From a virus: 64,000 nt of DNA. Location: positions 1-64,000 of the IMG/VR virus record IMGVR_UViG_3300023174_000067. One strand, written 5' to 3'. Both the position numbers and the translations under genes were made by a program. Below, piece by piece: positions 36,401 to 59,258 of this stretch (its first letter is position 1; each line of letters starts with the position of its first letter). The notes under the pieces were generated by a model. That model did no database searches. It saw nothing but the letters and a program-made list of their open reading frames with translations, and was not told the origin of the DNA.

Positions 36401-39059
36401 AAATATTTGCCACACTTAAAATTGTTGTGTTGGTAACACTATCTGTTTTATATATATAAACCTTTCCTTTAAGTATATCGGCCAATGAACCATTCAGAGG
36501 TGACGAATTTGACTTAGAAATAAAATCTGTCATTGTCATACCTGTTATTACTTGAAAATATTCAATATCAGATTGAAATGCGTACGCCTTTACTTCCGTA
36601 AAATTATTTGGTAATGTATAAGTTGTTTGTTGATTACCTATTTTATTTAAAGGATTTGAATAATTTACAGTTATTGAACTTGGATAATTTGTGGTACCTG
36701 TAACATTTCTTGTTCCAAAAACGTTTCTTGTTCCTCCTGTGATATTTGGGTCAGTAGATTTTTTAACATCAGTAAAACTAAACAAGCTGCTGGCAGAAAA
36801 TATTGCCATGTTACCTTGTACGTTTACCACTACCGCTATGATATTATCTAAATGTGAATTCGTATTTACAGATGGATTATACTTTACAGATATTTGATTT
36901 ACACCTCCATTGTCATTATAAAATTTTCCTTTAGTGTTGAATGAGTTTATTCTTTCGGCAAAAGGTAAGTCGTTAGACCTATAACTAATAGTAGGAAATA
37001 ATTGATTTGTTGGTCTCAAATTATTTCCTGAAATAATTTGTATAATGGGGTCACTATCGTTAAGTGTAAATCCTTTAAATATGGATGGAATATTACTACC
37101 GTTATTAATCCATAATGGATAATAACTTCCAGGATTTAATTGTCCTTGATATCCAAAATTAACAAAAAATCTACCAGCTCTTGTTGAGGTTTGTGCTGGT
37201 AATGGTGTTGGTGGGGTTCCTGCGGTTCCGTTTCCATCATCATCTTCTTTTTCACAGGTACAAGTATCACAATCAGGATAGGTAATCATTGGCAATCTTA
37301 TATCTGGAAAATTATCAAATGGTTGGTTACAATCTATTCCTATTCCGCTACACAATCCATCAAAAGGACAATAACTAAGTGGCCATGGAAGACAAATATT
37401 ACATATACCACATAATATTATTGTAAAAATACCAATAACTATATTCAAAACCCAAGCCGAAACACTATACGCAATTATAATAGGATACATTAAAAATCCA
37501 ATAACCGTCATTAAAAAATTAATAATTAACCACATTAATGTTGTATGAAACACCCCATCATTAACAGGATATTTATTAGATGTATCTTCGCAAGTATCAT
37601 CATCAATTCTTTTTATTCCTATAAACCTTTCTCTAACTTTCCTTCTTTTATCTAAATCAACAAATTGTGATACCGTATACACTTTATTATAATCATATTC
37701 ATAAAAATAATCTTCACAATTTATTATACTTAAAATATCAGGATTTGTAACACTAACTTGGCTAGTTGTATAAGCAGACCAATCTAAACTAAACGCATAT
37801 GAACTTTGAGCCTCGTAATAAGGTATAGCACCTAATTGTCCACTTAATGGGTCAATATTGCCTTGATTATTACTAGTATCCCATCCCTTTTCTTTGATAT
37901 TTGGAACTAAATAATAACCCCTTTTATAATCCTCGTTGATATTTTTACTTTGTTGCCACTTTATTTTAAATCGATACTTACCTTTTGTCGGAATACCAAC
38001 ACTTGGGTCTTCAGATAAGACCAAATCACCAAATTCATTTGTGTAAACATAATCCAAATTCATTGGTATATCGAACAACCATGTTCCATCCCCATCAATT
38101 AAATGTCCTCCATTTGGTAAATTAGCCCTTTCCAATACTGGTAACCCATCTGAATCTTGATATATTGTTTGAGTAATTCCAATGATTTCTCCAGGTCCCG
38201 TAATCATTTTACATAAATCTCCTGTCGCCTTTTGAGCCCTACCATTTTGCTTCACCCCTGATTTTTCGTTTGAACTCATTAGAGAACCCATAAAAATAGC
38301 AGTTGGTTTTATGTCAATATTAGCTTCCCCTGTTAAATCAAAATCGACTCTATTAATACCAATTTGGCAAACTTCAGGTTGACCCCAAAATGGTAATATC
38401 TCTACTGTTTTACTTATGGTAATAATCTGAGGTAGCTCATTAAAATTTGATGATGCCTTAAATTTCACACCGTCAAATTGTTCTTCATTTGCAATTCCCA
38501 TTCTAATCAAATCCTGAGGAGACAATGAGAAAGGACCTATATCAGATAGGTCAACATTCATAACTAATGTTTGAGTTCCTGTTGGAACACCAAAAATTAA
38601 AAAGTCACCGCTATCATTTGTCGATACTGTAAATTTATAATACTTGTCGTATAACTCAACAACCGTTTGGTTTGTTAACGCATCTGTTCTAGTTGGAAAA
38701 GTACCTGTTGGTACATGTTCAGAATATGATGGTATATATGGTAATAGATTATACACATACCCATCTTCATTTCTTTGTTCTAAATTTTTATAAGGGTATA
38801 TTGCATTTATTACAGGATTCTCTTCATCTTCAGGTAGTATTGGTATAAAGATTGAAACTCGGGCATTTGGTATACCATATCCATTATTGGCAAAAACTCT
38901 ACCAGCGATAACCCCATAATCGGAACACATTCTAGTATAGACATCTTGTTGTCTAATTTTTAATGATAAGATTTCTAATTGTTCAAAATCTTGGTCTATT
39001 AAAACTTGAATATTTTTATCCTGACCAGGTGTTGTCCTAATTCTATACGATTGACCCAT
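33417..39059 (-). CDS. Large baseplate-associated protein with carboxypeptidase-regulatory-like Ig domain and a hydrophobic hairpin
   Basis: Likely start MGQSYRIR (ATG 39059, TATTTAT at 39084-39078) rather than 39119; GVIAGRV...GIPNARVSIF...TNDSGDFLIFGVPTG; long hydrophobic segment followed by a Cys cluster. Confidence 0.7.
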   Translation of the reverse strand: MGQSYRIRTTPGQDKNIQVLIDQDFEQLEILSLKIRQQDVYTRMCSDYGVIAGRVFANNGYGIPNARVSIFIPILPEDEENPVINAIYPYKNLEQRNEDGYVYNLLPYIPSYSEHVPTGTFPTRTDALTNQTVVELYDKYYKFTVSTNDSGDFLIFGVPTGTQTLVMNVDLSDIGPFSLSPQDLIRMGIANEEQFDGVKFKASSNFNELPQIITISKTVEILPFWGQPEVCQIGINRVDFDLTGEANIDIKPTAIFMGSLMSSNEKSGVKQNGRAQKATGDLCKMITGPGEIIGITQTIYQDSDGLPVLERANLPNGGHLIDGDGTWLFDIPMNLDYVYTNEFGDLVLSEDPSVGIPTKGKYRFKIKWQQSKNINEDYKRGYYLVPNIKEKGWDTSNNQGNIDPLSGQLGAIPYYEAQSSYAFSLDWSAYTTSQVSVTNPDILSIINCEDYFYEYDYNKVYTVSQFVDLDKRRKVRERFIGIKRIDDDTCEDTSNKYPVNDGVFHTTLMWLIINFLMTVIGFLMYPIIIAYSVSAWVLNIVIGIFTIILCGICNICLPWPLSYCPFDGLCSGIGIDCNQPFDNFPDIRLPMITYPDCDTCTCEKEDDDGNGTAGTPPTPLPAQTSTRAGRFFVNFGYQGQLNPGSYYPLWINNGSNIPSIFKGFTLNDSDPIIQIISGNNLRPTNQLFPTISYRSNDLPFAERINSFNTKGKFYNDNGGVNQISVKYNPSVNTNSHLDNIIAVVVNVQGNMAIFSASSLFSFTDVKKSTDPNITGGTRNVFGTRNVTGTTNYPSSITVNYSNPLNKIGNQQTTYTLPNNFTEVKAYAFQSDIEYFQVITGMTMTDFISKSNSSPLNGSLADILKGKVYIYKTDSVTNTTILSVANISDCLGINNSGASGLYIVLLQRGVDQYSPLYNTQIGLGKIFGYNNANAVLINSDYRLNIPIQGIDTSIGGASGDNICFENSLATNNNTPNNGKNVFFPSYIFTPGNYISYTTNNLRYYSRLDDTITSNPPPVFVSDPLINYVNVGNNNGVTDLTSKINNGFYLGAGSTNSDGKIFYLNTTQSNTLSPDRNSTVWFVTQTVPGYNTGGLLVAGNKYKIVQFNGGDNFVPGGAPNNNNGTVFIYNGNPITWSNGSRISRYIPVGSEYVTATNSPNQTTIPAGTWTLNLISTSTDSFIHFEVYKKDISNNETFLFQSNEVHITSTYSENALTYTTSSVPLLSTDRIVVKFFVINTTNSSNNITIYTDGMSSSPPKYTYLLTSFGRDDAKYILNESIVGGSYLYMDSNGGLKTYSPIYPTITTTMSNPNNIVMRCDRLPSTDTIVSGDNSPILQNNRDAYAYSVSNGITQTVGTPSTVGTFNSSVDTSVPSDIDGIDNNILNSFTCNTMKDLNCYQGDGLSFNIDPNCSANDKVEYGCYIFVSRPLWGLFGQNGDINQLEEYISRFKFMYALCSGVLSQVFVNNWINGNLYAFPFKINTYYNKLNQVRKRVYPAKVVVLQYESNNFYYRSSPYTIQGQFIGSPYSSDPAKGANERNLKYPTTIMNLGPRSAFLQEITLNGNFNGYNVDKLINTSYNNQDTLVNLFAVTRMVNRSFWNDFLPGFTGSIKNLFSRAGQRVDGDFAQTSAINTQIGVVPLDSEYYTSAVPNPSVIVANGGTSNPMMGIFFNSSEDDIRVRDYISPGRTIRYNPNNGLFRYDYEPFKSQVVPNYKWNINGSNTIFGNEQNNWATNTSDIFAIKYQLLDRIYSPYPYGVISDSWDYRGYIFGQITQPIVTNSGTLIVGRVYTIIDYNLGDDFTNVGAGSNATGTQFTATGTLPAIWTNGSTLESIGQYQYTTPPLNNNPALGGAPWYFYFGLTKGKTALNRFFEKYLGQKGLNE

Positions 39060-39077
39060 TAATAATCTCTTTAAAAG

Positions 39078-39084
39078 ATAAATA
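39078..39084 (-). promoter_or_regulatory. TATTTAT upstream motif
   Basis: ataaata on +, upstream of the ATG at 39059; a second copy at 39147-39153. Confidence 0.45.
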
Positions 39085-39158
39085 GTTGATGGTGCATTTT
39101 TGAGAGAGCGTAGATGCACGTATTATAAACATAAACGTATTATCTAATAAATAAATTA

Positions 39159-41494: not shown

Positions 41495-41689
41495 TTAGTC
41501 TTTTTTTATGTTAGTTATACCTTTTTCGTGTCTTGGTTCATATGGACAATTTAAACATCGGTTTCCACAACAATGTCCTCTACTTAAATGATAGTCCTCA
41601 GTAAAAACTAATAAACCCTTTTCATTAAAATAATAATAAGAAGGGAGAAGTTTATCCTTCTCCCTAATTTTTTGTTCTATGTTTTCCAT
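41495..41689 (-). CDS. Small Cys-rich DUF5522-like protein
   Basis: YYFNEKGLLVFTEDYHLSRGHCCGNRCLNCPY; start reassigned to MENIEQ, just after the RNR stop. Confidence 0.75.
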   Translation of the reverse strand: MENIEQKIREKDKLLPSYYYFNEKGLLVFTEDYHLSRGHCCGNRCLNCPYEPRHEKGITNIKKD

Positions 41690-41690
41690 A

Positions 41691-43559
41691 TTATTTAATC
41701 TCACATCCCGCAGCTCCACAAGCGATTTCACCGCTTAAATCAGTATTATCTTGTAATTCTACAATCTTACTTAAATCAATACTGTGTAATGATTTAAACA
41801 TTCTTTCAAATGTCTCTTTATCACAATCCTCAAAAGGGGCTTGTTTATAAGAATGGTCAGAATAGGGTAATACCGAAAGACCATTATAGAAATCACGATT
41901 ATTCCAAAACCACTCACCAGCTAATTCCCAATCTTCAGGTTTTAAACTTACGGTTGCCGATACGTTATGAGTATTTGAACCACTTCTGTGTCCAGGTCTA
42001 ACCCATTCTTGAGTAATCTTTTTGATTCTATCAAGAAGTTGGAATGGACTTTCAGTTCTTAAAATTGCTCCTTCTGGTGCCTTTTGTGGTACTGAGATAA
42101 CCGCTGTGTCGTGTGGACGGAAATATTCGTCCTCAACAAGTTCAGGGTGATTAATCGCAAGATAATTATAAATTGCTTCATTCTTACCTACACGAACTCT
42201 TCTAACGTAGTAATCATTATGCCATGCGTGGATACCACTTGATGTACCTAATGTTAATGATGTAGTACCTGCTGGTTTAACAGTTGTTGTTCTTGCTGAT
42301 TTGTTAATCCCGATAAGTTCCGCAACTCTTGAGTTTTCTTCTTTAACAAGATTTGCAGCTTCTTTCATATCATATCCAAGAACTACACCTGAACCAATAC
42401 CTGTCATAGATACCCCGATAAGAGCCTCTTTCTCAGTTGTTCTTTTCCAAACATCACGAAGATAATGGAAGTCAGTATAACCCGCTTGTAATGTTCCGAT
42501 GAACGCCGCTGCTTTAACACGATTGTTCAAATCTTCTTGTGATTCGATGTCAGATACATTTACCTCACAAAGATTACAGAATTGATTTGGACGAAGTGCA
42601 ATTTCACAACAAGGATTAGTACCCCAATCTTTATCATTTGTAAAATAGATTCCTGGTTCACCTGCTCCTGAAGCCTCAACTCTTTTCCATAAGTCCATGA
42701 AGAACTCTTTGGTAATTTTGTGTCTTACAAGTGCCGCTGAGTTATTAGCTCTTCCTCTTTGTGGATTATTCTCCCACCATGCACCTGCTTTACAAGCAAT
42801 CATTTCGTGGTCATCTGCACTGAACAATGAGATAAGTGCAGCTCTTCTAATTCCACCCGCAAGAACTGCATCTGCGATATGACAAACCATATCATGAACC
42901 TCAATAGGACTTAATTTATCACCATCTTCTCTTGCTTCTAACATTCCTTGTAGTTTGTGAAGACAATCTTTAAGTGGTTGAGGACCTGGTGCTTTACCAC
43001 CTGATGTTACAAGTTGAGCCCCTTTTGGTCTGATATCTGAGAAATCAAATTCAGGCATTGACAACTGTTCTCCGAAATAAGATTTGAACAACACTTTGAT
43101 TGCGTCAGCCCATCCTTCAATAGAATCTCCAATTAAAAATCTTCTTTTTCTGTTTGGGTTTGGTTTTCTGATTTCAGGTAATCTCTCAACATGATGTTTT
43201 TGTACTGAGTACCCGACACCTGTTCCACCCAAAAGTAAAAACATTGACTCCGCAAATGCGTCCAAATGGTCTATAGGTAGGTAAGCACAATTATAAATTC
43301 TGTTTGGAGAAATTTCGATTGGTTTTCCACCAAATTGCATCGACCTCATTGAGGGTAATACTTTTTTATCATACACATATTTGTATACCTCAACAATCTC
43401 ACTTCCGAGTTTTGGGTATTTTTTAATGTGCATATTCATGTTTCTGGTTACTAATTCTTCCCAAGTTTCTCTTCTATCAAGTTCGGGTAAAAATTTGGCG
43501 TATTTCATATACACCGTAATGTCAGACAATATCTTCTGAGATGCGTCCATTTTGTTCAT
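41691..43559 (-). CDS. nrdJ: Class II (adenosylcobalamin-dependent) ribonucleotide reductase, monomeric type
   Basis: RRETWEE, LPSMRSMQFGG, IYNCAY, GGIRRAALISL, TNPCCEI, FCNLCEVN, TVKPAGT, C-terminal CGAAGCEI; no beta subunit nearby. Confidence 0.9.
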   Translation of the reverse strand: MNKMDASQKILSDITVYMKYAKFLPELDRRETWEELVTRNMNMHIKKYPKLGSEIVEVYKYVYDKKVLPSMRSMQFGGKPIEISPNRIYNCAYLPIDHLDAFAESMFLLLGGTGVGYSVQKHHVERLPEIRKPNPNRKRRFLIGDSIEGWADAIKVLFKSYFGEQLSMPEFDFSDIRPKGAQLVTSGGKAPGPQPLKDCLHKLQGMLEAREDGDKLSPIEVHDMVCHIADAVLAGGIRRAALISLFSADDHEMIACKAGAWWENNPQRGRANNSAALVRHKITKEFFMDLWKRVEASGAGEPGIYFTNDKDWGTNPCCEIALRPNQFCNLCEVNVSDIESQEDLNNRVKAAAFIGTLQAGYTDFHYLRDVWKRTTEKEALIGVSMTGIGSGVVLGYDMKEAANLVKEENSRVAELIGINKSARTTTVKPAGTTSLTLGTSSGIHAWHNDYYVRRVRVGKNEAIYNYLAINHPELVEDEYFRPHDTAVISVPQKAPEGAILRTESPFQLLDRIKKITQEWVRPGHRSGSNTHNVSATVSLKPEDWELAGEWFWNNRDFYNGLSVLPYSDHSYKQAPFEDCDKETFERMFKSLHSIDLSKIVELQDNTDLSGEIACGAAGCEIK

Positions 43560-43573
43560 TTTTCGTTTTTAGT

Positions 43574-44956
43574 TTATTTGTTTTGTGATTCTCTTTGTTT
43601 TCTCTTCTCCAATAACTCTTTAACTCTGTTCTTTTGTTGTTCTTCTTTGTTTTCTTCAAACCCTAAGAATGTTACGGAACTTTCGGTATCAATAACCAAC
43701 AGTTCATTATCAAATTTACAGTTCTCAAAGATAATTCCATCGGAGCCAATACGAGATTTTGTGATAGCGATTGTCGCCAATTTCATTTCTTTTTGCTGTA
43801 GAGTTTTAGCGACTGAAATGATAACATGTCCAACTTGAGCTTTTTTAATGGAGCCACCCATTTGGTCTGTGGTAACGACCTCAGAAGATATTGAACTTCT
43901 GTTACCTTGTGTTGCGGTCCAACCTACGATATTAAGTTCATGACACATAGCCTCAAACCCTCTCATAACTGAACCTTCACTTTTCCACTCATCACCAAGA
44001 TTTTTATCAGGGACAACACAATCAATATAGTCCAAAAGAACCATATCAATTTTATTACCCTCAGCAATCATCTTTCTTAGTTGGTTTTTAATTTGTAACA
44101 TAGTCATTGTGTCTGACGGTAACTTTTTAAGTACTAACTTATTTGGCATCGTTTCTTTGATTTCAGTAATTTTTTTCATTACTTCGTCTTTCTTATTGGC
44201 CAATTCATCAGGAGAAATTCCCGTCCACAATGTAAAATGTTTTCTTTGTATAATCTTTGGGTTGTCCTCAAAAAATATTTGAAGAACATTATATCCAAGA
44301 TTAAATGCGTGGTTTGCAACTTTTGTAAGTAATGTTGATTTACCTACACCCGTTGGGGCTAATATCACACCAATCTCTCCTTTAGCTAAACCACCCTTAA
44401 GTAGTTTGTCTATAGATGGTATCCCCATCGGTACTGGATGTCTAAAATCGTCATTTAACACTTCATCAAGATTGTGGAACACATCCTCAGTTCCTTTATC
44501 AACCTCTCCAACCTGTAAAGCTTCTCTAACCATCTCTTCTAACGTATCGTAATTCTCAAACTCTCCACCATCAATAATCTTTTGAGCTTTACCCATTACT
44601 TTCTGTAACTCTTGTTGTTTACAGAACTTTAATGCCTTTTCCTGAACAAACGTCACACCTTCAAACGGTGCCTCTTTCACTTGCTTAATTGTATCTAAAA
44701 CAATCTTTGCCGCAAGTTCTTGTGAAATTTCTGACTTAGCGATTTGTTCCAAAGTATCAAACGATGGTGTTGATTCATACTTCTTATAATACTCTCTAAT
44801 CATCTGTATGATGATTTTAAAGTATTTATTTTCGAAGTAATGTTGTTCAATAACATCTATTATTGAACGAGAAAATTCTTTATCTAAAACAAGTTGATTA
44901 AGAAGTTGGATTTGAAAGGTGTTACCTAAATAATTAAAATTTTTGTCAGAATTCAT
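43574..44956 (-). CDS. DnaB/gp41-like replicative helicase
   Basis: GGLAKGE, Walker A APTGVGKS, LLDYID, WTATQGNR, KSRIG. Confidence 0.92.
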   Translation of the reverse strand: MNSDKNFNYLGNTFQIQLLNQLVLDKEFSRSIIDVIEQHYFENKYFKIIIQMIREYYKKYESTPSFDTLEQIAKSEISQELAAKIVLDTIKQVKEAPFEGVTFVQEKALKFCKQQELQKVMGKAQKIIDGGEFENYDTLEEMVREALQVGEVDKGTEDVFHNLDEVLNDDFRHPVPMGIPSIDKLLKGGLAKGEIGVILAPTGVGKSTLLTKVANHAFNLGYNVLQIFFEDNPKIIQRKHFTLWTGISPDELANKKDEVMKKITEIKETMPNKLVLKKLPSDTMTMLQIKNQLRKMIAEGNKIDMVLLDYIDCVVPDKNLGDEWKSEGSVMRGFEAMCHELNIVGWTATQGNRSSISSEVVTTDQMGGSIKKAQVGHVIISVAKTLQQKEMKLATIAITKSRIGSDGIIFENCKFDNELLVIDTESSVTFLGFEENKEEQQKNRVKELLEKRKQRESQNK

Positions 44957-44978
44957 GCAATTTGTCTTTATGTAAATG

Positions 44979-44985
44979 ATAAATA
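44979..44985 (-). promoter_or_regulatory. TATTTAT upstream motif
   Basis: ataaata on +, upstream of the helicase ATG. Confidence 0.4.
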
Positions 44986-45438
44986 TTAGACCTCAAGCGG
45001 AAGTCCAAGGTATTCGTAAGTTAAATTTTCTTCTGAAAAAATGTCAGTCAAATCTTTAAGTATACTTTTCAAGTAAGGACGTACATCTACCGTATATCTA
45101 ATCTTAGGTGGATAAAGTTTAGCATCATACTGTCTATGACAAATTGTCTCATCTCCGACTTTGATGTACATGTTAAAATATTCAACATCATCTGTCATTG
45201 ATGTATTCATAACTTTTGGGTCTTGTTCAATAAATGATTTGTTGTCCATCATATAAACAACGGTTTTCCACTTCAAGTCATTTTGTAACTCATTTTTAAT
45301 TTGAAACATTAGGTCATAAAGTTCAAATGAGTTTTTAACTCTTGGATTGTAATCTCTAACATTGTAGAATCTTTGTACGATAATGATATCGTTAAGTGTT
45401 AACAAAAATTCCATTTTAGTAATGTCCATCTCTTTCAT
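44986..45438 (-). CDS. Hypothetical protein in the replication operon
   Basis: 150-aa ORF tightly packed between the exonuclease and helicase. Confidence 0.7.
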   Translation of the reverse strand: MKEMDITKMEFLLTLNDIIIVQRFYNVRDYNPRVKNSFELYDLMFQIKNELQNDLKWKTVVYMMDNKSFIEQDPKVMNTSMTDDVEYFNMYIKVGDETICHRQYDAKLYPPKIRYTVDVRPYLKSILKDLTDIFSEENLTYEYLGLPLEV

Positions 45439-45455
45439 GTTTTGTTTTTTTTTGG

Positions 45456-46445
45456 TTATTTTTTCTTTTCCTTTCGGGTTAATTTTAAAAATGGTTTAAG
45501 GAAATTAATCCAAGCGTTGTCATCTTTTGGCAAATACTTAAACAATCCGTCCTCCATCATCATCTTCATCAGATTTTTATATCCCCTATCTGTGGGGTCA
45601 ATTCTTTCTTTATAAACTTGTTCCACTAACTCTTTCGCATCATCTGTAACAAGTGGGTTTCCTAAATCTACAATTTTTAAATTATTAGTATAAAACTCTT
45701 CTCCAAGTATACCATTTTTTGAGTGTCCTGTCAAAATTTTACCAACAATTTTTGGAACTTTCTTTTCTTGCTGTAAAATCCTAGCATTATCTAATAATTC
45801 GGTAATACTGCAGGGTTTTGTCAACATCTGTGGGAATAACTTAACCAATGTCTTTTCACCAAGTCCATCAATACCTGATATGTTATCTGACTTATCACCA
45901 ACAAATACTTTTGTTAGTAATACATTTTGATGGGGGATGTCAACTTTGTTAAGTGATATCTTATCACCGAATTTATAGTATTCTTTCTTAATAGGAGAGT
46001 AAATTTGGACTCTTTCTGATATGAGCTGGGTTAAGTCCTTATCCGCCGAGAAGATGGTTATATTCTCATCTAATGCAATCTTACAGTATTGTCCGATTAA
46101 GTCATCGGCTTCATTATGGGGAACCTCGACTTGTCTTACAAATACTTCTTCCAAGTATTGTTTAACTCTTTGTCTTTGATTTAAGTAGGACTCATATTGT
46201 TCCTCACTCATCTCATTTCTTCTTTGTGCCTTATAGTTGGGGTATAATTCTTTTCTAACTGATGTATTGGACTCACTGTCCCAACAAACAATTACCTTGT
46301 CGTAATTTCTTTCTTCTAAATGTTTTCTGATTGTATTAATGAAATGATATATCCCTCCGATATGTTCATTCTTGTTAAATAAATCCCTAACTCCATTATA
46401 ACCTATCATATACAGGTTATTCCCATCAATTAAAAGTGTTTTCAC
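45456..46445 (-). CDS. 5'-3' exonuclease / flap nuclease (Pol I N-terminal, T4 RNase H-like)
   Basis: LLIDGNN, ELYPNYKAQR, EADDLIG, SADKDLTQL, GDKSDNISGIDGLGEKT; GTG start. Confidence 0.92.
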   Translation of the reverse strand: MKTLLIDGNNLYMIGYNGVRDLFNKNEHIGGIYHFINTIRKHLEERNYDKVIVCWDSESNTSVRKELYPNYKAQRRNEMSEEQYESYLNQRQRVKQYLEEVFVRQVEVPHNEADDLIGQYCKIALDENITIFSADKDLTQLISERVQIYSPIKKEYYKFGDKISLNKVDIPHQNVLLTKVFVGDKSDNISGIDGLGEKTLVKLFPQMLTKPCSITELLDNARILQQEKKVPKIVGKILTGHSKNGILGEEFYTNNLKIVDLGNPLVTDDAKELVEQVYKERIDPTDRGYKNLMKMMMEDGLFKYLPKDDNAWINFLKPFLKLTRKEKKK

Positions 46446-46516
46446 TTAACCATTTGTGAGGTGATAAAATATTGTTTCTAAATTAAGTATAGTTGTAAGT
46501 TATAGGTAAGTCAATT

Positions 46517-47632
46517 TTATTTTTTTTCTTTACCACTATCTTGAGTAGCATATTTAATACCCATAATTGTACCAACAATTGAAAATGCATTTGTTAACAA
46601 CACACTAAACATATTACTCCAAGTTGAGCCAATAATTTGTGTTTCCTTTCCCATCATAATTGCCGTCCAATATAACATAGTTGTTACGATTCCTACTCCT
46701 ACAATTACCGCTAATGCGCATTTAACAATGATTTTAATTAACTCACTTTGACTCTTTTTCATCACCACATCCAAATCATTCAAAGCCGCATTCTTTTCTA
46801 TTTCTATAGAATCTTTAAGTTTTTGTGAATTATCTAACTCTAATTTCAAGTCTTTTGTTAGTGTTTCTATTTTATTTTTACTGATAACGGTTTCAGTTAT
46901 ATCAGTAGCAATTTTGATTACACTTGTAACATTTCCCTTACTATCTAATATGGGATTATATGTGGCTTGTAAATAAATAACACTACCATCCACTTTTTTT
47001 CTCTCAACCACACCTTCAAAAAACTTACCACTTCTTAAGGTATCCCAAAATATTTTATACTCATCTGACTTTGAATACTCATAACTAACAAAGATACTAT
47101 GATGTCTCCCAACTATTTGATTTTTTTCGTTGGGTTTATATCCCATCGCTTGTAAAAATAAAGTATTTGCATCTAAAATGAAACCATCAACATTAAAAGT
47201 AATACTTGCCGTACTTCTGTTAATTGCTTCTAATTGTTTTTTACTATTCGCAATTGCCGTAATGTCAGTAGCAACTTTCATTATTTTAGTAATCTTACCA
47301 CTATCATCAAAAATAGGATTGTATGTCGCTTGTAAGTTGATAAGGGTACCATCTTTTTTTATTCTTTCAAATTCTCCTGAATAATACTTTCCACTTCTTA
47401 AAATGTCCCAAAACTTTTCATACTCCGATGACTTTGCGTAATCTTTACATACAAAGATACTATGGTGCTTACCAATAAGTTCATTATATTCATCAACACC
47501 ATATCCCATCGCCAACAAAAAAATGTCGTTTACACCCAAAATGATACCTCCTAGGTCAAAATAGATAATGGCATTACTTCTATTAATACCTTCAAGTCGG
47601 CTTAATAGTTCTTCTTTAGATAAGTTTTTCAT
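46517..47632 (-). CDS. Tandem PAS-PAC sensor protein with coiled coil and two C-terminal TM helices
   Basis: Two INRS.A.I.F...G.IL..N..FL.AMGY...GxHHSIFV...FWD.LRSG...LQATYNPI.D...K.ATDIT repeats (BdlA/chemoreceptor-type PAS); no MCP or kinase domain. Confidence 0.88.
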   Translation of the reverse strand: MKNLSKEELLSRLEGINRSNAIIYFDLGGIILGVNDIFLLAMGYGVDEYNELIGKHHSIFVCKDYAKSSEYEKFWDILRSGKYYSGEFERIKKDGTLINLQATYNPIFDDSGKITKIMKVATDITAIANSKKQLEAINRSTASITFNVDGFILDANTLFLQAMGYKPNEKNQIVGRHHSIFVSYEYSKSDEYKIFWDTLRSGKFFEGVVERKKVDGSVIYLQATYNPILDSKGNVTSVIKIATDITETVISKNKIETLTKDLKLELDNSQKLKDSIEIEKNAALNDLDVVMKKSQSELIKIIVKCALAVIVGVGIVTTMLYWTAIMMGKETQIIGSTWSNMFSVLLTNAFSIVGTIMGIKYATQDSGKEKK

Positions 47633-47644
47633 AGGTTGGTTTAC

Positions 47645-47652
47645 TATAAATA
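47645..47652 (-). promoter_or_regulatory. TATTTATA upstream motif
   Basis: tataaata on +, upstream of the PAS gene and downstream of the recA terminator. Confidence 0.55.
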
Positions 47653-47690
47653 TTTTGTAAAAAGTAAATAGTTAATAAAAAAAATAAATA

Positions 47691-47716
47691 AAAAAACCCT
47701 CCTTTATGGGGAGGGT
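47691..47716 (-). terminator. Intrinsic terminator after recA
   Basis: Minus strand AACCCTCC-CATAAA-GGAGGGTT followed by a T-tract. Confidence 0.8.
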
Positions 47717-47738
47717 TAATTTTGTTAAATTAATATTT

Positions 47739-48734
47739 CTATTCTGTTATTTCTACTTCTTCTGATTCTTCTAATGATAATTCACCATCACCTGATAATA
47801 TTGCATTCCAATATTGTGAGTAATCTTTTTTGTATTTTTCCAAATCTTCTTTGGTATCTTGAATATATCCGTTATGAACGGCTATTACTTTTCCATCCTT
47901 GTACCCCAAACCATTTACGTGGTTTTTAAGGATTGATACTTTTGTTCTAATAGCGTAAGATACTGTTCTACCATTCTTGGTTGCAGTAATGTGATTGATA
48001 CCTGCGTTCTTTTGATTACCAAATAAGAACACCAATGATGACGCCAACCATAAAGCCTCACCACCCTTCGCCTTAATTGTAGGTTGTCCAAATGGATTGT
48101 CAGGTAACTCAACCCAAGGCTGATTAACTACAACCATTGAGTTATAATACGGATAATCTTCTTTCTTTGATTTGGTGATTCTTGAATGAACTCCCATACC
48201 AATCTTATCCGCCAATGTAGCCGCATTATGTTGTTTGCCGCCCTTACCATCGAATGTCATTTTACATGGAATAGAACCAACTGAATCCCATAAGAATAAT
48301 AAGTTATACGGAACCTCACCTTTTTCTTGAGCATCCAACACTTCATTAATAAAGTCAGTAACCTGCTCAATATAATCAAATGAATCATTAAAGATAAAAT
48401 CCCCATCCCACTCTCCGTTTTCATTCTTTGTTGCTTGTAATCCTAACTCAACTGCGTGGTCCCAACTCCATTTCTTTTCTGTAATAATGAATACAGGTAA
48501 ATGCCCTTTCTTTTGAGCATCCGCGGCTGCAAGTATCATCGCGGTTGTCTTACTACTATTACTATGTCCCAAGAACATATTAATACCTCCCATTACAGGA
48601 CCTGGTATTCCACAAGCATTATGGAACGCTTCACCACAATTGTAGTAGTTTGTTTCTTTATATTTTGTTTTGGTTGAGAACTTATCTTTTATATTCCCAA
48701 TTCCGCCAATATCTTTTTTCTTAATTCCTGCCAT
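47739..48734 (-). CDS. RecA/UvsX-like recombinase
   Basis: Divergent Walker A GHSNSSKT, LFLWDSVGS, VVVNQ, KGGEAL, KNHVNG; start reassigned to MAGIKKK to avoid overlap. Confidence 0.88.
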   Translation of the reverse strand: MAGIKKKDIGGIGNIKDKFSTKTKYKETNYYNCGEAFHNACGIPGPVMGGINMFLGHSNSSKTTAMILAAADAQKKGHLPVFIITEKKWSWDHAVELGLQATKNENGEWDGDFIFNDSFDYIEQVTDFINEVLDAQEKGEVPYNLLFLWDSVGSIPCKMTFDGKGGKQHNAATLADKIGMGVHSRITKSKKEDYPYYNSMVVVNQPWVELPDNPFGQPTIKAKGGEALWLASSLVFLFGNQKNAGINHITATKNGRTVSYAIRTKVSILKNHVNGLGYKDGKVIAVHNGYIQDTKEDLEKYKKDYSQYWNAILSGDGELSLEESEEVEITE

Positions 48735-48747
48735 AAATTTTACTATT

Positions 48748-49491
48748 TTACATTCTAAATATAGTAAAAGTATTTGAATTATCCAATAGTATTGCGGTTC
48801 TATTTTCAACCCAATCTCCTGAATTTAGATAATGACCGTCTTCAGTCATCGTGTTTGAAGGTTGGTGTATGTGTCCACATATAACACCATAACACCCTTT
48901 TTTGTGAGCCATCTTTACGGCTTCGGATTCAAAATCATTTATAAAGTTTGTAGCAGTTTTGACCCCATTTTTAATTTCTTGTGATATTGACTTATATGGT
49001 AATTTCCTCCACGCTCTATATCTATTATACCACCTATTTAACCACAACGCCATATCGTATCCAACCGAACCAATTTTTGCCAACCATTTATATTTGGTAA
49101 TAAAAACATCTATCTTATCTCCGTGAAAAACATAATAATGTTTCTTAACAAAAAAATCATCCGTTGTATTATCATATAACTCCAAAACATAATCTTCCCT
49201 AACTTCAATCTTACCCAAATCAATATCCATAAATTCGGTTAAAAATTCATCGTGGTTTCCCCTAATCCATATAACCTTTGTTTTTTTTGATAACTTTAAA
49301 AGTTTTGTAATAACTTTTGTGTGAGTGTTCTTCCACTTAGAACCTCGTTTAAGCGCCCACCCATCAACAATGTCGCCATTTAATATTAATAAATCGGTGG
49401 GGTGAGAATCAATAAACTCAATAAACTCTTTTGCTTTTGAGTCCTTTGTTCCGAGATGCAAATCAGAAACAATTATTGCTTTATATTTCAT
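48748..49491 (-). CDS. Calcineurin-like metallophosphoesterase, LpxH-like (UDP-2,3-diacylglucosamine diphosphatase family)
   Basis: SDLHLG, LNGDIVDGW, RGNHD, HGD, CGHIH, YLNSGDWVE; start MKYKAII (ATG 49491). Confidence 0.88.
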   Translation of the reverse strand: MKYKAIIVSDLHLGTKDSKAKEFIEFIDSHPTDLLILNGDIVDGWALKRGSKWKNTHTKVITKLLKLSKKTKVIWIRGNHDEFLTEFMDIDLGKIEVREDYVLELYDNTTDDFFVKKHYYVFHGDKIDVFITKYKWLAKIGSVGYDMALWLNRWYNRYRAWRKLPYKSISQEIKNGVKTATNFINDFESEAVKMAHKKGCYGVICGHIHQPSNTMTEDGHYLNSGDWVENRTAILLDNSNTFTIFRM

Positions 49492-49580
49492 ATCCCACAA
49501 ATTAATTTTGTAAGGATTATTAGTGTTGCGGCAGTTGATACAACAATAAACTCAAAATTAATATCTACTTTTTTTTTCAT
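49488..49580 (-). CDS. 30-aa putative single-TM peptide
   Basis: Not in the track. MKKKVDINFEFIVVSTAATLIILTKLICGI*; ATGA overlap with both the GT2 stop and the phosphoesterase start. Confidence 0.55.
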   Translation of the reverse strand: MKKKVDINFEFIVVSTAATLIILTKLICGI

Positions 49581-50275
49581 ATCCAATAATTAAAATCCTG
49601 TTTAAAAAACTCATCGTTATTCCTATTCCACCAACACATAACCATAAGTTTTATCATATACCATAAACCTTTTTTCTCAAATCTTCTAGAAGGAGTATAA
49701 ACAAAAAGATTCTCCACTCTAAATTTATTTGGTACAATCTTAGAACTAAGATGGTAGTCCTCGGCAATTTTATCTTCATTATTAAATCCATTTAATTTAT
49801 TAAAGGTGTCGGTCTTAAACAACATAAATCCACCTAAAGCAAATGGTGTTGTTTTTGAACTAAACCATTGTATAACATTAAATATTTTATAAATCCAATC
49901 AAACTTACCATCTATTGTTTTAAACTTACAGGTCATCAAATCATACCTTCCTATTATCATTTTATTCAAACATTTAACAATTAAATCATCTTGTTTAATA
50001 TGAATATCCGCATCCAAAAATAAAACATAAGGCGTCTTGACTAACTCAGCTCCTTTGTTTCTAGCAACTGATGGTAATCCACCACTAATTATCTTTATCT
50101 GTTCTTTATATTTTTCTTGGAATTCATTAAGTAAAATAATACTTTCTTTATCAGTAGATGAGTCCGCAATAATTATTTTGAACTTTTCGGTTTGACTTAA
50201 AATAAAAATGAGGGTCTCAATTATAAGAGAACCCTCATTTTTACAAGGTATCACTATTGTAATATTTTTATTCAT
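49577..50275 (-). CDS. Family 2 glycosyltransferase
   Basis: IVIPCKNE, IIIADSSTD, ARNKGA, FLDAD, GFNNEDKIAED. Confidence 0.9.
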   Translation of the reverse strand: MNKNITIVIPCKNEGSLIIETLIFILSQTEKFKIIIADSSTDKESIILLNEFQEKYKEQIKIISGGLPSVARNKGAELVKTPYVLFLDADIHIKQDDLIVKCLNKMIIGRYDLMTCKFKTIDGKFDWIYKIFNVIQWFSSKTTPFALGGFMLFKTDTFNKLNGFNNEDKIAEDYHLSSKIVPNKFRVENLFVYTPSRRFEKKGLWYMIKLMVMCWWNRNNDEFFKQDFNYWI

Positions 50276-50312: not shown

Positions 50313-50681
50313 TTATATGAACTTAACGTTATAATAAATTTGATTGTTAATTGGTTTTGAACAATAAACTAAAACTTTTAATCCTAAATTAATTCGATTT
50401 TGAATATTAGTTATTGTTTCATATTCATTGATTATATATGGAATATCATTATACCTTATATTGTTTGATTGAGTTATTAATATGTTCTCATTATCAATGA
50501 TAGAATCTAATAAAATAATAGATTCGTCAACAAATTCTTTACTGTATAAAGAACTTTGTGTTTGTAACAAATAAGACATAGTATCTTGAAATCCTTGTCT
50601 CTTATAAAAATCTCTAGCAATACCAAGATTACTATTGTCCATAAAATAATTATCCTCTAATAAATCGATTATATTTGCCAT
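50313..50681 (-). CDS. Hypothetical protein
   Basis: Start MANIIDLL chosen because the track start (50717) lies inside the upstream hairpin. Confidence 0.6.
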   Translation of the reverse strand: MANIIDLLEDNYFMDNSNLGIARDFYKRQGFQDTMSYLLQTQSSLYSKEFVDESIILLDSIIDNENILITQSNNIRYNDIPYIINEYETITNIQNRINLGLKVLVYCSKPINNQIYYNVKFI

Positions 50682-50696
50682 ACTATTAATATTAAA

Positions 50697-50721
50697 ATGG
50701 GTGAGGACATACCTCACCCAT
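50697..50721 (-). terminator. Terminator-like hairpin after the SSB gene
   Basis: atgggtgagg-acata-cctcacccat, 10-bp stem; short T-tail on minus. Confidence 0.65.
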
Positions 50722-52579: not shown

Positions 52580-55500
52580 TTAAAATCCTATAGTAGGATT
52601 ATTAGCAATCTCTAACGCTTTTTCAACTATATTATATAATTCATTATAACTTTCAACATTATTAGTTTTTGAGGCGTTATATTCATTTATTGTTAAATTA
52701 TTATTCCAATATCTAGTATATGCCTCAACCATACTAGAAGGAGTATTATTAATCTGTGGCGATTTTGCACCCCATCTATACTCTAAAAATTTACACATAT
52801 TTTGAATACTATCAAAACAAGCATATGGTTGTGATTCTCCTTGTCCATCTATTTGACATAAAAATTCTTTTTTTAATTGTCCAGTTAGTTTATCACCAGG
52901 CCAAGAAGAATTATTTGGGCCATAATTTAATCTCGCACCTGAATAGTTATTATTCCAACAAACAAATTCATTAGAAGTATAAGAATTAAGATATACAGTA
53001 ACAAAAGAAATAATTTTGGTGATTTTAGGATTACTTCCGCCTGTTATAGTTGTTTTTATAGTATTAATCATATCTTGAAGATTAATTCTATTTTCACTTT
53101 GTGTCGCAGCACTGAATTTAAGTGTTTTACTATAAAGTGAAGGTATTTTACCACTACAATTACTTGTTACGGTATCTATTTTTTGTAAATTACTAGTTTG
53201 TGAATTAACAGCATTTGCATTATTAGTTTGAGTCGCACCAACACTATTTGTACTAACACCTTGTTTAAGTTTATTACTTATTTCAGTAAGTAATTCTTTA
53301 GTTAGTGTTTGTAAATAATTATCTATTTTTGGTAATGCAAATATTTGTTGTCTAGTTCCTTTGAATGTTGTTTCAAACTTACCAGGGGTGATGTTATGTT
53401 TAACACTTGTAATATAGTACGGACCATAAAACATTGGAACATATCTCAAATTAAAATACATTGTAGGTTGTATCATAACATTACCCATACACTGCACTTG
53501 GGCTTCGTATGACCTTTTCTTATAAAAATCCCATAACGAAACATTCTGAGTCGCACTACTTCTACCATTTGCTTGGTTTATAGTATTATTTAATTGAGCT
53601 AAAGATTCTGAGGTTTCTTTTCCTAAATTTTGTGAAATATCAAAATGATGAAATATATTTTGGTTTCTAATTCCAATATCAACATTAAATGCTACCACTT
53701 TATTAGATAATCCCCAATCTTGTTTATTATTTAAATTATCTAATAATGGTGACTCACTAGACCTTCTCAATTCAAAAGAATCATTTCTAAATCTATTTGT
53801 TGTATTTTTTCCAGTGTCAGTATGTTCACTACCAACCGCAGAATATGTACAAACCAATTTTGGTGATGAACTTCTTGTATCAACATTTAAAAAAGTACCA
53901 AATAAGTTATTTCCAAATTCAAGAGTACCTTCAGTTTTAGGTATATTATCTTTTTGAACTTCCTGAACATTATAATAATTAATATATGCTGGATGCATTA
54001 AACAAGTAAAATGGTGAGTTCCTAATAAAGAACTTATATAACTAAAAACAGAAGCGGCTTCATTCATATTTGCAAATAAGTTTCTAGTCTTAATTGGGTC
54101 TATATAAATTTTATCACCAATATTTCTATTTGCCCTATCTAATAATAGAACATCTTCCATAAATGTTGTTTGACTATAATCATATCCCGCAATCCAAGTA
54201 TCGTTTAAAGCCTTAAATGATTCCCATAGTTCTAATGGTGTTTGTTCTCCTTGTAATGCCTTTGTCTTTGGAGCTTCGTCAACAATTTCAATATTTGGTA
54301 ATTCTTTTTGTAATTTTGTAAAAAGAGAATTAAATACTAAGTCGGTAAATTTTTTATTGTTTAATAAATAATTGTCAATTGAGTTAACAAACTTTTTATT
54401 ATTATAATTTGGGTCTATTTTTTTTTGTGTTGCGTATATTTTAATTAAAGGTGCCAAGATTTTAACTGAGTCTGAAGTAAACTCAATATTGTTATCCACA
54501 AAAAAATCTGTTATAGTACTACCACTATTTGTATATCTTATACCATCAATAGTAGAAAATCCAACATAAGATTGCAAATCAATCCATACTTGTGGATTCG
54601 CACTTTTTGACGCAGCAATTGTAGTGGTTCCTCCTGACGTAGGTAAAGAATTAGGTATATATGGATTAAATGTTATTTTATCTTCAACATAATTTACTGT
54701 TGAAAAACTATCAAACAATTTTCTATCAAAATTAGATGGATTACCATATTTCACAACTACATCATACTCCATAAATCTTTGTATTACATTAACCGCATCT
54801 TTTAATTGATTAGATTGAATATTTTGTATGATTTCATTTGAATTATTTGCAGTGACCTGATTAACTGTTAATAAATCTATCATTAACAATTGAAAATTCT
54901 TATAGGTCGTATCTAAGTCTGTACTTAACGTGTTTATCACAATACGATTTTCCGTTAAATCATCAACTTGTTGTACCTCATACTCATATTTTGATTTTGA
55001 GAATTTTAAGAACTCGTTCTCCATCATATCTAAAATTTCTTTGTTGAATACAGAAAATATTTCTTCCATAGTAGTATAATCGGCATTATCTCCAAATGAA
55101 AATGATTCTTGAGCTGAGTCGGTACCATAAAATACTGTTTTCATATATTTGTATGGTGATGGAATGTCAATTTTAGAATTATCAAAATAACCGTAATTAG
55201 GTAATGACCAGAATGTTCTAACACTACCGTTTATAACTGCGGGATTTGATTTAACAGGTAATAATAATTTACCACTATCTTTAAAACATTCAACTTGAAC
55301 TTGATTAACGTTAGTACCAAATGATGGTACAACATATTGTTTTTTATTTTTACTGTCAATAAGAGTACAACTCCATGGTCTAAATCTTAGATTATCATTT
55401 GGATTAGCAGTATCAAATCCTGCTGTTTTATCAAATGATGATGAATCAGTATACGTTAATGTAAACCCACTAGGTGAAACTAATTGATTTTGAATTTCAC

Positions 55501-58945: not shown

Positions 58946-59258
58946 AATAAAAGAAATAATTATTTAATGCCGCTTCGTAATCCTGTACAGAAGCTACTAA
59001 AGGAAATGGAATTGTCAATAGAGCACCGTCAGGAATATTCCATTCTAATCCACCAAATTCAGGATTTGCTTGTAATATTAACCAACCAAAAAATGGTGAG
59101 TCATAAAAATCCTGACTTATTTTATCAAGTCTACTTACACCAACTTTATAAAAATATCTTTTATCTGATGATTTTCCTGGTATTTTAACAAACGGAACTA
59201 CGGTTTGTTCCCCATTTATTAAAAAATTAATGTATCTATTAAAATATAAGTTACTCAT
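58935..59258 (-). CDS. gp53/LysM-like baseplate protein
   Basis: RLDKISQDFYDSPFFGWLILQANP...GALLTIP. Confidence 0.8.
   Translation of the reverse strand: MSNLYFNRYINFLINGEQTVVPFVKIPGKSSDKRYFYKVGVSRLDKISQDFYDSPFFGWLILQANPEFGGLEWNIPDGALLTIPFPLVASVQDYEAALNNYFFYYGR

Follow-up and report, generated by a model that had tools for sequence, protein, structure and literature searches.

Introduction

The timing of lysis is central to the fitness of a phage. Its only characterised signal-responsive form is lysis inhibition after superinfection, as described for T-even phages and ICP1 (PMC11413866, PMC7182436). In T4, which has the holin T, the antiholin RI is a membrane-tethered sensing protein, separate from the holin, which restrains it on signal (PMC11413866). 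ICP1 has an unrelated second pair of holin and antiholin, TeaA and ArrA, and the account of this pair gives conserved transmembrane proteins at one locus and an environmentally responsive lysis delay (PMC7182436). Holins with two transmembrane domains (TMDs) and both termini in the cytoplasm (N-in/C-in), including pinholin/antiholin pairs, have a short outer loop and end in a charged cytoplasmic C-terminus. In bacteria, the two-component systems LytSR and LytST are tied to the holin/antiholin-like membrane proteins LrgAB and CidAB and to the redox or oxygen state. The present study concerns a sensor gene of an uncultured phage with likenesses to these systems. It lies at 46517..47632 on the minus strand of a stretch of 64,000 nucleotides (the window), positions 1 to 64,000 of the IMG/VR virus record IMGVR_UViG_3300023174_000067, and encodes two PAS domains followed by a two-helix membrane hairpin.

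The protein has the same predicted topology as the two-TMD holins, with a charged C-terminus, and its relatives share their place in the lysis cassette. We consider it an even call that it is a one-component, signal-gated regulator of lysis timing, which would act by its hairpin on the small holin of the phage; a sensing protein separate from the holin is thus proposed here as in T4. In other phages, the same hairpin would be driven by a membrane histidine kinase of their own and a stand-alone receiver protein.

Domain architecture and topology

The open reading frame (ORF) is a real gene. Among the best 120 listed homologues, 120/120 are 365-396 amino acids (aa) long with 78-97% identity, and the ratio of non-synonymous to synonymous substitution (dN/dS) is 0.06-0.12. 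The parts of the gene are as follows (TM1 and TM2, first and second transmembrane helix).

46517..47632, minus strand: whole ORF, ATG start, 371 aa plus stop; PAS-PAS, long helix, two-helix membrane hairpin, basic tail
47264..47572, minus strand: PAS-A, residues 21-123; Pfam PAS_3/PAS_9, strands and helices in the model, alignment to 3ewk_A (1.6e-10)
46901..47209, minus strand: PAS-B, residues 142-244; Pfam, model, alignment to the Aer PAS domain 8dik_A (4.1e-06)
46742..46897, minus strand: cytoplasmic part of the long helix (register-preserving linker), residues 246-297; model helix 246-327
46652..46741, minus strand: TM1, about residues 298-327, the same helix continued, one conserved face; hydropathy 2.56, conservation moment 0.23
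46640..46651, minus strand: turn GKET, residues 328-331, predicted on the periplasmic side; model
46553..46639, minus strand: TM2, about residues 332-360, best conserved segment of the family; invariant F350 and G358, pattern TN[SA]FSI[IV]GT
46520..46552, minus strand: cytoplasmic basic tail, residues 361-371, ending GKEKK, little conserved; sequence and conservation profile

Pfam assigned two PAS stretches to the 371 aa protein (PAS_3, 4.1e-23; PAS_9, 8.4e-22; PAS, 3.8e-16), with 81.9 bits for PAS_3 (cut-off 25.6) and 77.8 bits for PAS_9 (cut-off 27). At E<=0.01, PAS families were the sole matches besides a sub-threshold sCache_3_3. Pfam detected no signalling domain of a methyl-accepting chemotaxis protein (MCP), no cyclase domain and no kinase domain; DHp/HisKA and HATPase_c, which make up a sensor histidine kinase, are absent from the window protein. 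A PHROGs search with the whole protein gave no match at E<=0.001. The AlphaFold2 model, with an 85-row alignment as input, has a mean predicted local distance difference test score (pLDDT) of 81.8 and a predicted template modelling score (pTM) of 0.42. Both PAS stretches are modelled as PAS folds, with a pLDDT of about 85-93 in this block. An unbroken 82-residue helix (246-327), a four-residue turn (328-331) and a second helix (332-365) follow. Kyte-Doolittle hydropathy in 19-residue windows has maxima at 298-316 (2.56) and 341-359 (1.76), and the protein ends in DSGKEKK. Pfam and the model thus bear out the initial annotation in its two PAS domains without kinase, MCP or cyclase output; hydropathy, model and sequence do the same for its two hydrophobic helices and basic GKEKK tail.

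A signal peptide is absent, lysines precede TM1 and the tail is basic. An N-in/C-in topology with a very short outer turn is therefore expected, with 297 cytoplasmic residues ahead of TM1. The small-holin topology suggested by the initial annotation stands for the two-helix N-in/C-in hairpin; a match to a holin family was not obtained.

Distribution and conservation of the hairpin module

The initial annotation had proposed a search with the C-terminus alone, and this recovered differently fused homologues. With the C-terminal 117 aa as query, phmmer gave 99 matches among 1.84 billion cluster representatives, 70 of them at E<=1e-10, mostly proteins of 130-260 aa with the hairpin at the C-terminus. 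A match of 4276 aa aligned to the helical part only and was regarded as spurious. The joined N-termini comprise one PAS domain, two PAS domains, a GAF domain (2.5e-17), a SOUL fragment, a zinc-finger-like stretch and, most commonly, a domain of about 60 aa termed LEGN. Judged by these fusions, the hairpin is a separable module. The C-terminal 117 aa matched no Pfam family; the best PHROG was phrog_1544, of unknown function, at 0.044. One relative matched Phage_holin_3_6 at 0.062, which is below threshold. ESM Atlas gave no usable look-alike for residues 250-371. Foldseek matches to Cellulophaga phage proteins in BFVD were weak (TM-score about 0.22-0.25), stood in a list dominated by the PAS part and were not taken as homologues.

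Conservation is highest in the membrane. F350 and G358 are invariant across 56 diverse representatives. TM2 has a mean majority fraction of 0.80 and is conserved on all faces (moment 0.02); many of its residues are small or polar (S, T, N, G). TM1 has a mean majority fraction of 0.60 and is conserved on one face, and the linker is lowest with 0.47. This pattern fits a hairpin that is buried and functional, unlike a lipid anchor.

The module is present in at least 547 viral contigs, and 164 loci in viral contigs are confirmed for the PAS-fused form. The initial annotation had asked how common the architecture is in bacterial chromosomes, and the hairpin proved rare there. Among 185,579 species genomes (one each), a scan with the single peptide pattern TN[SA]FSI[IV]GT, which divergent copies could escape, found 8 loci. 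All are on contigs of metagenome-assembled genomes (MAGs), 3-89 kb long and with eight taxonomic labels; one, of 4,939 bases, is also listed as viral in IMG/VR. When 401 genomes from the phylum of one such MAG were searched with a profile, 2 matched, that MAG and a marginal match of 20.6 bits. Judged by this distribution, the module is phage-restricted. A host gene on a mis-called viral contig was considered and rejected by the species-genome scan, the phylum search and the collinearity with phage G001, a relative described below.

Linker register

The lengths of the linker are quantised. In 74 unique LEGN-type proteins, the distance from a Tyr in the N-domain to the pre-membrane Leu is 50, 61, 64, 68, 75, 82, 89, 96, 103 or 114 residues, and 70/74 proteins (7/10 lengths) deviate from 75 by multiples of 7. 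In the PAS-PAS forms, the D[IV]T motif and the DLD motif are 42 residues apart in 132/132 unique proteins; the distance is 35 residues in the single-PAS form P0133. The DLD-type motif is followed by the TM2 motif at a constant 61 residues in all of these forms. Together with the C-terminal place and the invariant F350 and G358, this spacing marks the module family. Read in this way, the linker is a coiled-coil signalling helix with a phase that matters, and the length pattern is its signature. A preserved register matters only if the signal passes to the hairpin. The heptad-quantised linker is a design rule that is testable at once.

The coiled coil in the initial annotation is indirectly supported by these lengths. 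Dimerisation is inferred from the heptad pattern; a complex prediction with two copies of residues 240-371, run without controls, scored 0.00 where 0.42 was the mark and was given no weight.

The hairpin could merely tether the PAS pair, which would titrate a host ligand or disturb host signalling of the Aer or BdlA type. The PAS domains do resemble chemoreceptor or Aer-type PAS, and JGI pipelines label many relatives 'methyl-accepting chemotaxis protein'. Such a decoy or passive anchor is very improbable. Anchors usually drift, but the hairpin is the best conserved part and has the same sequence under GAF, LEGN and PAS N-termini. The linker register is preserved, and the protein has no MCP signalling domain for docking on CheA or CheW. 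The decoy of host signalling in the initial annotation gained no support.

Lysis cassettes of related phages

ORFs of related loci were called and then clustered, and 79 viral loci with the full PAS-fused gene were counted; they are mutually related and were chosen for carrying the gene, so the counts are not independent events. An endolysin-family gene is found within three genes of the PAS-fused gene in 64/79 loci and adjacent to it in 37. The endolysins are of the GH19 (31), PG_binding_1 (23), GH24 (13) and M15 (10) types. The neighbours fall into these clusters.

GH19 endolysin: phrog_181, 1.3e-66
Endolysin-like protein: PG_binding_1
GH24 lysozyme: Phage_lysozyme, 3.8e-43
M15 peptidase endolysin: 2.2e-20
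Phage_holin_4_1 holin: 1.6e-06
Several small ORFs: membrane or lipoprotein-like

That the endolysins are of four unrelated types, and the genes in shuffled orders, speaks against one inherited accident. The lysis timing proposed in the initial annotation thus finds its support in the relatives; no lysis gene is near in the window.

The protein itself might be the holin, a class II-like N-in/C-in hole former with two TMDs, gated by its own PAS sensor. Two TM helices with a short periplasmic turn and a charged C-terminal tail would suit this, and so would the usual holin position, directly upstream of an endolysin on the same strand, in 30/79 loci. A TM2 rich in S, T, N and G and conserved all round is expected of a helix buried in a homo-oligomer. 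Typical holins are, at the same time, far smaller than 371 aa. They are highly diverse, and a near-invariant TM2 across very different phages is unlike them. A Phage_holin_4_1 holin co-occurs in 17/79 PAS-type loci, there within three genes, and in 49/80 loci of the LEGN type. A further small membrane ORF (<=170 aa), a candidate holin, is within three genes in 71/79 loci; in G001, for example, such an ORF lies upstream (L014:5128-5325) and encodes 65 aa with two TM helices and a KKEKKK tail. The hairpin matched no holin family. In the window, the gene heads a run of replication genes without a terminator before the next one, and a holin would be an early lethal protein there unless tightly gated. 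We regard a holin as quite unlikely. The other small membrane ORF and the missing holin-family match make a regulator the better fit.

Two observations concern individual loci. A long perfect inverted repeat with a stem of about 16 nt lies between the PAS-TM gene and the endolysin of G001 (L014:7122-7198), just ahead of the start codon of the latter, and may act there as a terminator or an attenuator. In the MAG-binned contigs L086, L087 and L088, two or three ORFs per locus clustered with the target because PAS domains are shared, and L086 has two kinase-domain matches; by tblastn, the hairpin module is single in each of these loci.

A two-component form

The LEGN-type proteins belong to a gene cluster with a consistent order. 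In 80 LEGN-type loci (L090-L169; for example, the operon at L091:4132-6585), a small TM protein, a PAS/HATPase_c kinase and a receiver are followed by the hairpin protein as the last gene. The kinase carries TM helices at its N-terminus, a HATPase_c domain (5e-13) and often a PAS domain (PAS_3, 1.4e-12). No HisKA family of Pfam matches its phospho-acceptor region. The small TM protein has 62-102 aa and a conserved Cys-Pro-Ser-Lys-Trp stretch. In 15 LEGN loci, an extra membrane protein of 162-167 aa (cluster N10) is encoded between the receiver and the hairpin gene. Lysis genes are again close, with the Amidase_2 endolysin cluster in 25 of the 80 loci, M15 endolysins also nearby and the holin_4_1 cluster as given above.

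By tblastn, the LEGN domain is present in all 80 LEGN loci, the receiver in 79 and the kinase in 75; each of the three is present in 0/80 PAS-fused loci, and they are absent from the 134.6 kb record of the window as well. The number of module copies per locus is exactly one throughout. The PAS-fused and the LEGN two-component forms are mutually exclusive. With one module per locus, this suggests that the window protein is the fused one-component counterpart of a phage kinase-receiver-hairpin pathway.

Relocation of the gene

The window is part of a virus record of 134,633 bases with a CheckV completeness of 46%. The phage encodes a baseplate wedge protein, a ribonucleotide reductase, DnaB, a 5'-3' flap exonuclease (FEN) and a RecA/UvsX-like protein. 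Lake and freshwater metagenomes contain it repeatedly: in three runs, each of a different study, half or more of the sampled words are present, and the source sample may be among these runs. The surroundings of the gene are as follows.

47739..48809, minus strand: upstream neighbour, RecA/UvsX-like recombinase; Pfam RecA 9.1e-05 (22.5 bits, cut-off 27), phrog_97 (UvsX-like) 4.7e-14
47695..47717, minus strand: intrinsic terminator that follows the recA-like gene; stem of 8 pairs with 5 G-C, then a T-run
47633..47694, minus strand: AT-rich leader with TATTTATA at 47645-47652; conserved in L002-L004
46486..46514, minus strand: sigma-70-like promoter match between the gene and FEN, TTGACT-17-TATACT, 10/12; consensus match alone
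45456..46445, minus strand: downstream neighbour, FEN; 5_3_exonuc_N 3.3e-32, phrog_107 8e-34
46446..47738, minus strand: segment of about 1.29 kb with terminator, leader, PAS gene and promoter-like spacer; absent at the G001 junction, where the gap from recA-like gene to FEN is 22 bp

The relative G001 (272,437 bases, 91% complete) has a DnaB 81% identical to that of the window, and for 73/98 ORFs in the record of the window G001 has collinear homologues. Its copy of the gene is 80% identical and located at 263.6 kb, and the gene directly downstream encodes a PG_binding/GH19 endolysin (phrog_181, 6.6e-67); this lysis-cassette region is outside the span of the window's fragment. The gene moved from the lysis cassette into the replication-gene run in the lineage of the window. 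The arrangement of the window is common to L002-L005. A contig from a different study (X3 record 21, 613 nt, 14 differences) bridges the 3' end of the recA-like gene, the spacer and the 5' part of the gene. Four metagenome runs were compared over 3.5 kb as contigs, with no single listed piece spanning the whole stretch; joints with a side under 30 letters were disregarded, and bins lacking cover were not read as absence. In the RNA-library run X20 (word share 0.07), contigs 90-97% alike cover 46441-46648, 46787-47143 and 47148-47378; they were not counted as evidence of transcription because DNA can occur in such libraries. A route for the move is suggested by L032, L035 and L037, in which replication genes abut the lysis cassette and the PAS gene is at the boundary.

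Purifying selection on the window copy (dN/dS of 0.076 to L002, 0.062 to L003, 0.087 to L004 and 0.08-0.12 to others) indicates that the relocated gene is still functional. Its persistence in the replication-gene run suggests that the gene acts in trans. Expression is probably earlier than that of the late lysis genes, and the place of the gene as first in the run speaks for a factor that acts in trans and is synthesised ahead of the late holin.

The same persistence beside replication genes, with no lysis gene near, would also suit a membrane effector outside lysis that is set by the host state, for example in superinfection exclusion, in control of membrane potential or transporters, or in the takeover of a host membrane protein. 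Relatives would in this case have the gene in the cassette solely because late genes or membrane proteins are expressed together. In four of five complete or near-complete records carrying the gene (77-80% identity), the homologue of the window's DnaB is undetectable or 28% identical. The gene therefore either crosses phage backbones or is far more constrained than they are, and the constancy of TM2 across unrelated backbones fits a conserved host target. An effector of this kind is nonetheless unlikely: four endolysin families, shuffled gene orders and the occurrence in both forms are hard to explain without a role in lysis, and G001, the closest complete relative, has the gene directly upstream of its GH19 endolysin.

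PAS domains and cofactor

The solved sequences nearest to the PAS pair are 3ewk, two Aer entries, NifL and LOV domains of phototropin. 8DIK, 3EWK and 2GJ3 are FAD-binding PAS domains, and the Aer contacts to FAD (flavin adenine dinucleotide) are named in the passages on the structure as H53, R57, M69, W70, N85 and R115 (PMC9668731). PAS-B conserves 2/6 of them, H53 as H178 and W70 as W196; the Aer numbering in this mapping was checked by the positions S28G, A65V and A99V named in the same passages (PMC9668731). The Cys column of the phototropin-2 alignment is occupied by His57 in PAS-A, which is not the residue of a LOV domain. In LOV domains, the Cys of an NCRFL-type motif forms the adduct. 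BdlA, a similar PAS protein, binds haem. By these comparisons, a flavin in the PAS pair is possible and a haem is equally open. The initial annotation had named haem or flavin and sensing of oxygen or redox; with 2/6 Aer contacts conserved, this assignment is not secured.

Proposed mechanism

The two cytoplasmic PAS domains would sense an intracellular cue, probably the redox or energy state. The last strand of PAS-B is predicted to lead straight into the long helix of fixed heptad register, which becomes TM1. TM1 and the nearly invariant TM2 would form the N-in/C-in hairpin in the inner membrane. A conformational change of the PAS pair could run along the long helix into the hairpin, and the hairpin may in turn change how the phage's own small holin forms holes, by either restraining or releasing it, like an antiholin or holin modulator. 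Bursting would thereby be coupled to the state of the host.

Several points weigh against a regulator of lysis timing. The gene of the window is placed between the recA-like gene and FEN, away from lysis genes. Neither tblastn with cassette proteins nor eight endolysin and holin families of Pfam (the PF00182 search had no positive control) detected lysis genes in the 134.6 kb record, which is 46% complete. Among the relatives, whose counts are not independent, 15/79 loci are without an endolysin cluster within three genes: 3 belong to the window clade, 7 are cut by the contig end and 5 are unexplained (L008, L045, L065, L069 and L081). The hairpin matches no holin or antiholin family of Pfam or PHROG. 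The receiver of the LEGN loci scores 30.0 bits for Response_reg (6.2e-07), against a cut-off of 30.2. Four of the Aer contacts are replaced in PAS-B (M69 by F195, R57 by V182, N85 by R211 and R115 by A242), which concerns the cofactor. No cultured carrier was found: in tblastn, run with low-complexity filtering, none of 50,697 deposited phages matched the module or a LEGN-type protein. The full protein gave 3 records, with the PAS region alone aligned, and megablast of 44000-50000 against deposited phages had no match.

The wider proposal is tentative but quite possible: uncultured freshwater and marine phages may have their own burst-decision pathway, in a one-component version with PAS or GAF fused directly and a two-component version with phage kinase, stand-alone receiver and LEGN adaptor, both converging on an undescribed, register-coupled hairpin that gates the holin directly as output domain.

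Flanking sequences and other genes

The initial annotation had the gene insulated by the recA terminator. This terminator is real on the upstream side and is kept in the relatives L002 and L003, with compensatory stem changes; no terminator-like site was found between the PAS gene and FEN downstream. The TATTTATA motif assigned to the gene is present 13 nt 5' of the ATG, and the leader has no Shine-Dalgarno-like purine run ahead of the ATG. Its frequency in the window is at chance level (19 matches, 21.5 +/- 4.7 in shuffles) and a count-significant motif was rejected. By hand count, 5/11 minus-strand copies (5269, 8557, 9581, 47645 and 50280) are at most 40 nt upstream of ORF starts (5265, 8541, 9546, 47632 and 50275). 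They could be a promoter or leader element, or merely AT-rich spacers.

With the TTG start given in the ORF list, the recA-like ORF shares 62 nt with the 3' end of a metallophosphatase gene (48748-49500). This start is probably too far upstream, with the internal Met of MAGIKKK as the true one. A family-2 glycosyltransferase (49577-50275, minus strand) has its G001 homologue (210610-211320) about 95 kb off the syntenic position, and the ORF at 50313-50717 (minus strand) is without a G001 homologue. The neighbourhood from the recA-like gene to the metallophosphatase is thus an apparent hotspot of gene turnover.

At the syntenic place, G001 lacks a homologue of the ribonucleotide reductase gene (41691-43559, minus strand; phrog_367, 7.1e-126), and the adjoining 78 aa ORF (41495-41731) has none either. 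The reductase gene looks like another one inserted beside the replication module. ORFs of 622-651 aa similar to it flank the PAS-TM gene in L003, L048 and L056. Four giant minus-strand ORFs (14670-20267, 33417-39119, 52580-58945 and 59258-64000+; 1865, 1900, 2121 and 1666 aa) match at most one PHROG each, of unknown function, and are conserved in G001 at about 40-50% identity. They may encode structural or tail-fibre proteins.

Comparison with known systems

Searches of an open-access library found no account of a PAS-fused holin or antiholin, or of a phage kinase with receiver in a lysis cassette. If the proposed role is true, phages read the internal state of the host (redox, energy or a metabolite) to decide on bursting, the first control of lysis timing by an intracellular cue. 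The hairpin would then add a new class of sensory output domain to the repertoire of one- and two-component signalling. The window copy, unlike those embedded in cassettes, shows that strong constraint persists outside the lysis cassette.

T4 RI is small and has a periplasmic sensing and binding domain, with superinfection as its signal (PMC11413866). The window protein has a cytoplasmic PAS pair with a membrane hairpin as the working part, and the two share no sequence similarity. ArrA of ICP1 is without PAS, GAF or two-component input in the passages describing it, and TeaA is a GTA_holin_3TM protein (PMC7182436); neither is homologous to the hairpin module. Two-TMD holins and pinholins have about 60-110 aa and no sensor domain, in contrast to the long cytoplasmic part of the window protein and its lack of a holin family. 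The FAD-binding PAS sensors Aer, NifL and MmoS (8DIK, 2GJ3, 3EWK) are the closest solved relatives of the PAS pair and share the equivalents of H53 and W70 with PAS-B. Their output is an MCP, kinase or NifA-binding domain, whereas the output of the window protein is the membrane hairpin. LytSR and LytST are cellular and act on transcription by a DNA-binding response regulator. The phage two-component form has a stand-alone receiver, which would act on the hairpin at the protein level, if at all, and the form in the window, unlike LytSR and LytST, does without any kinase.

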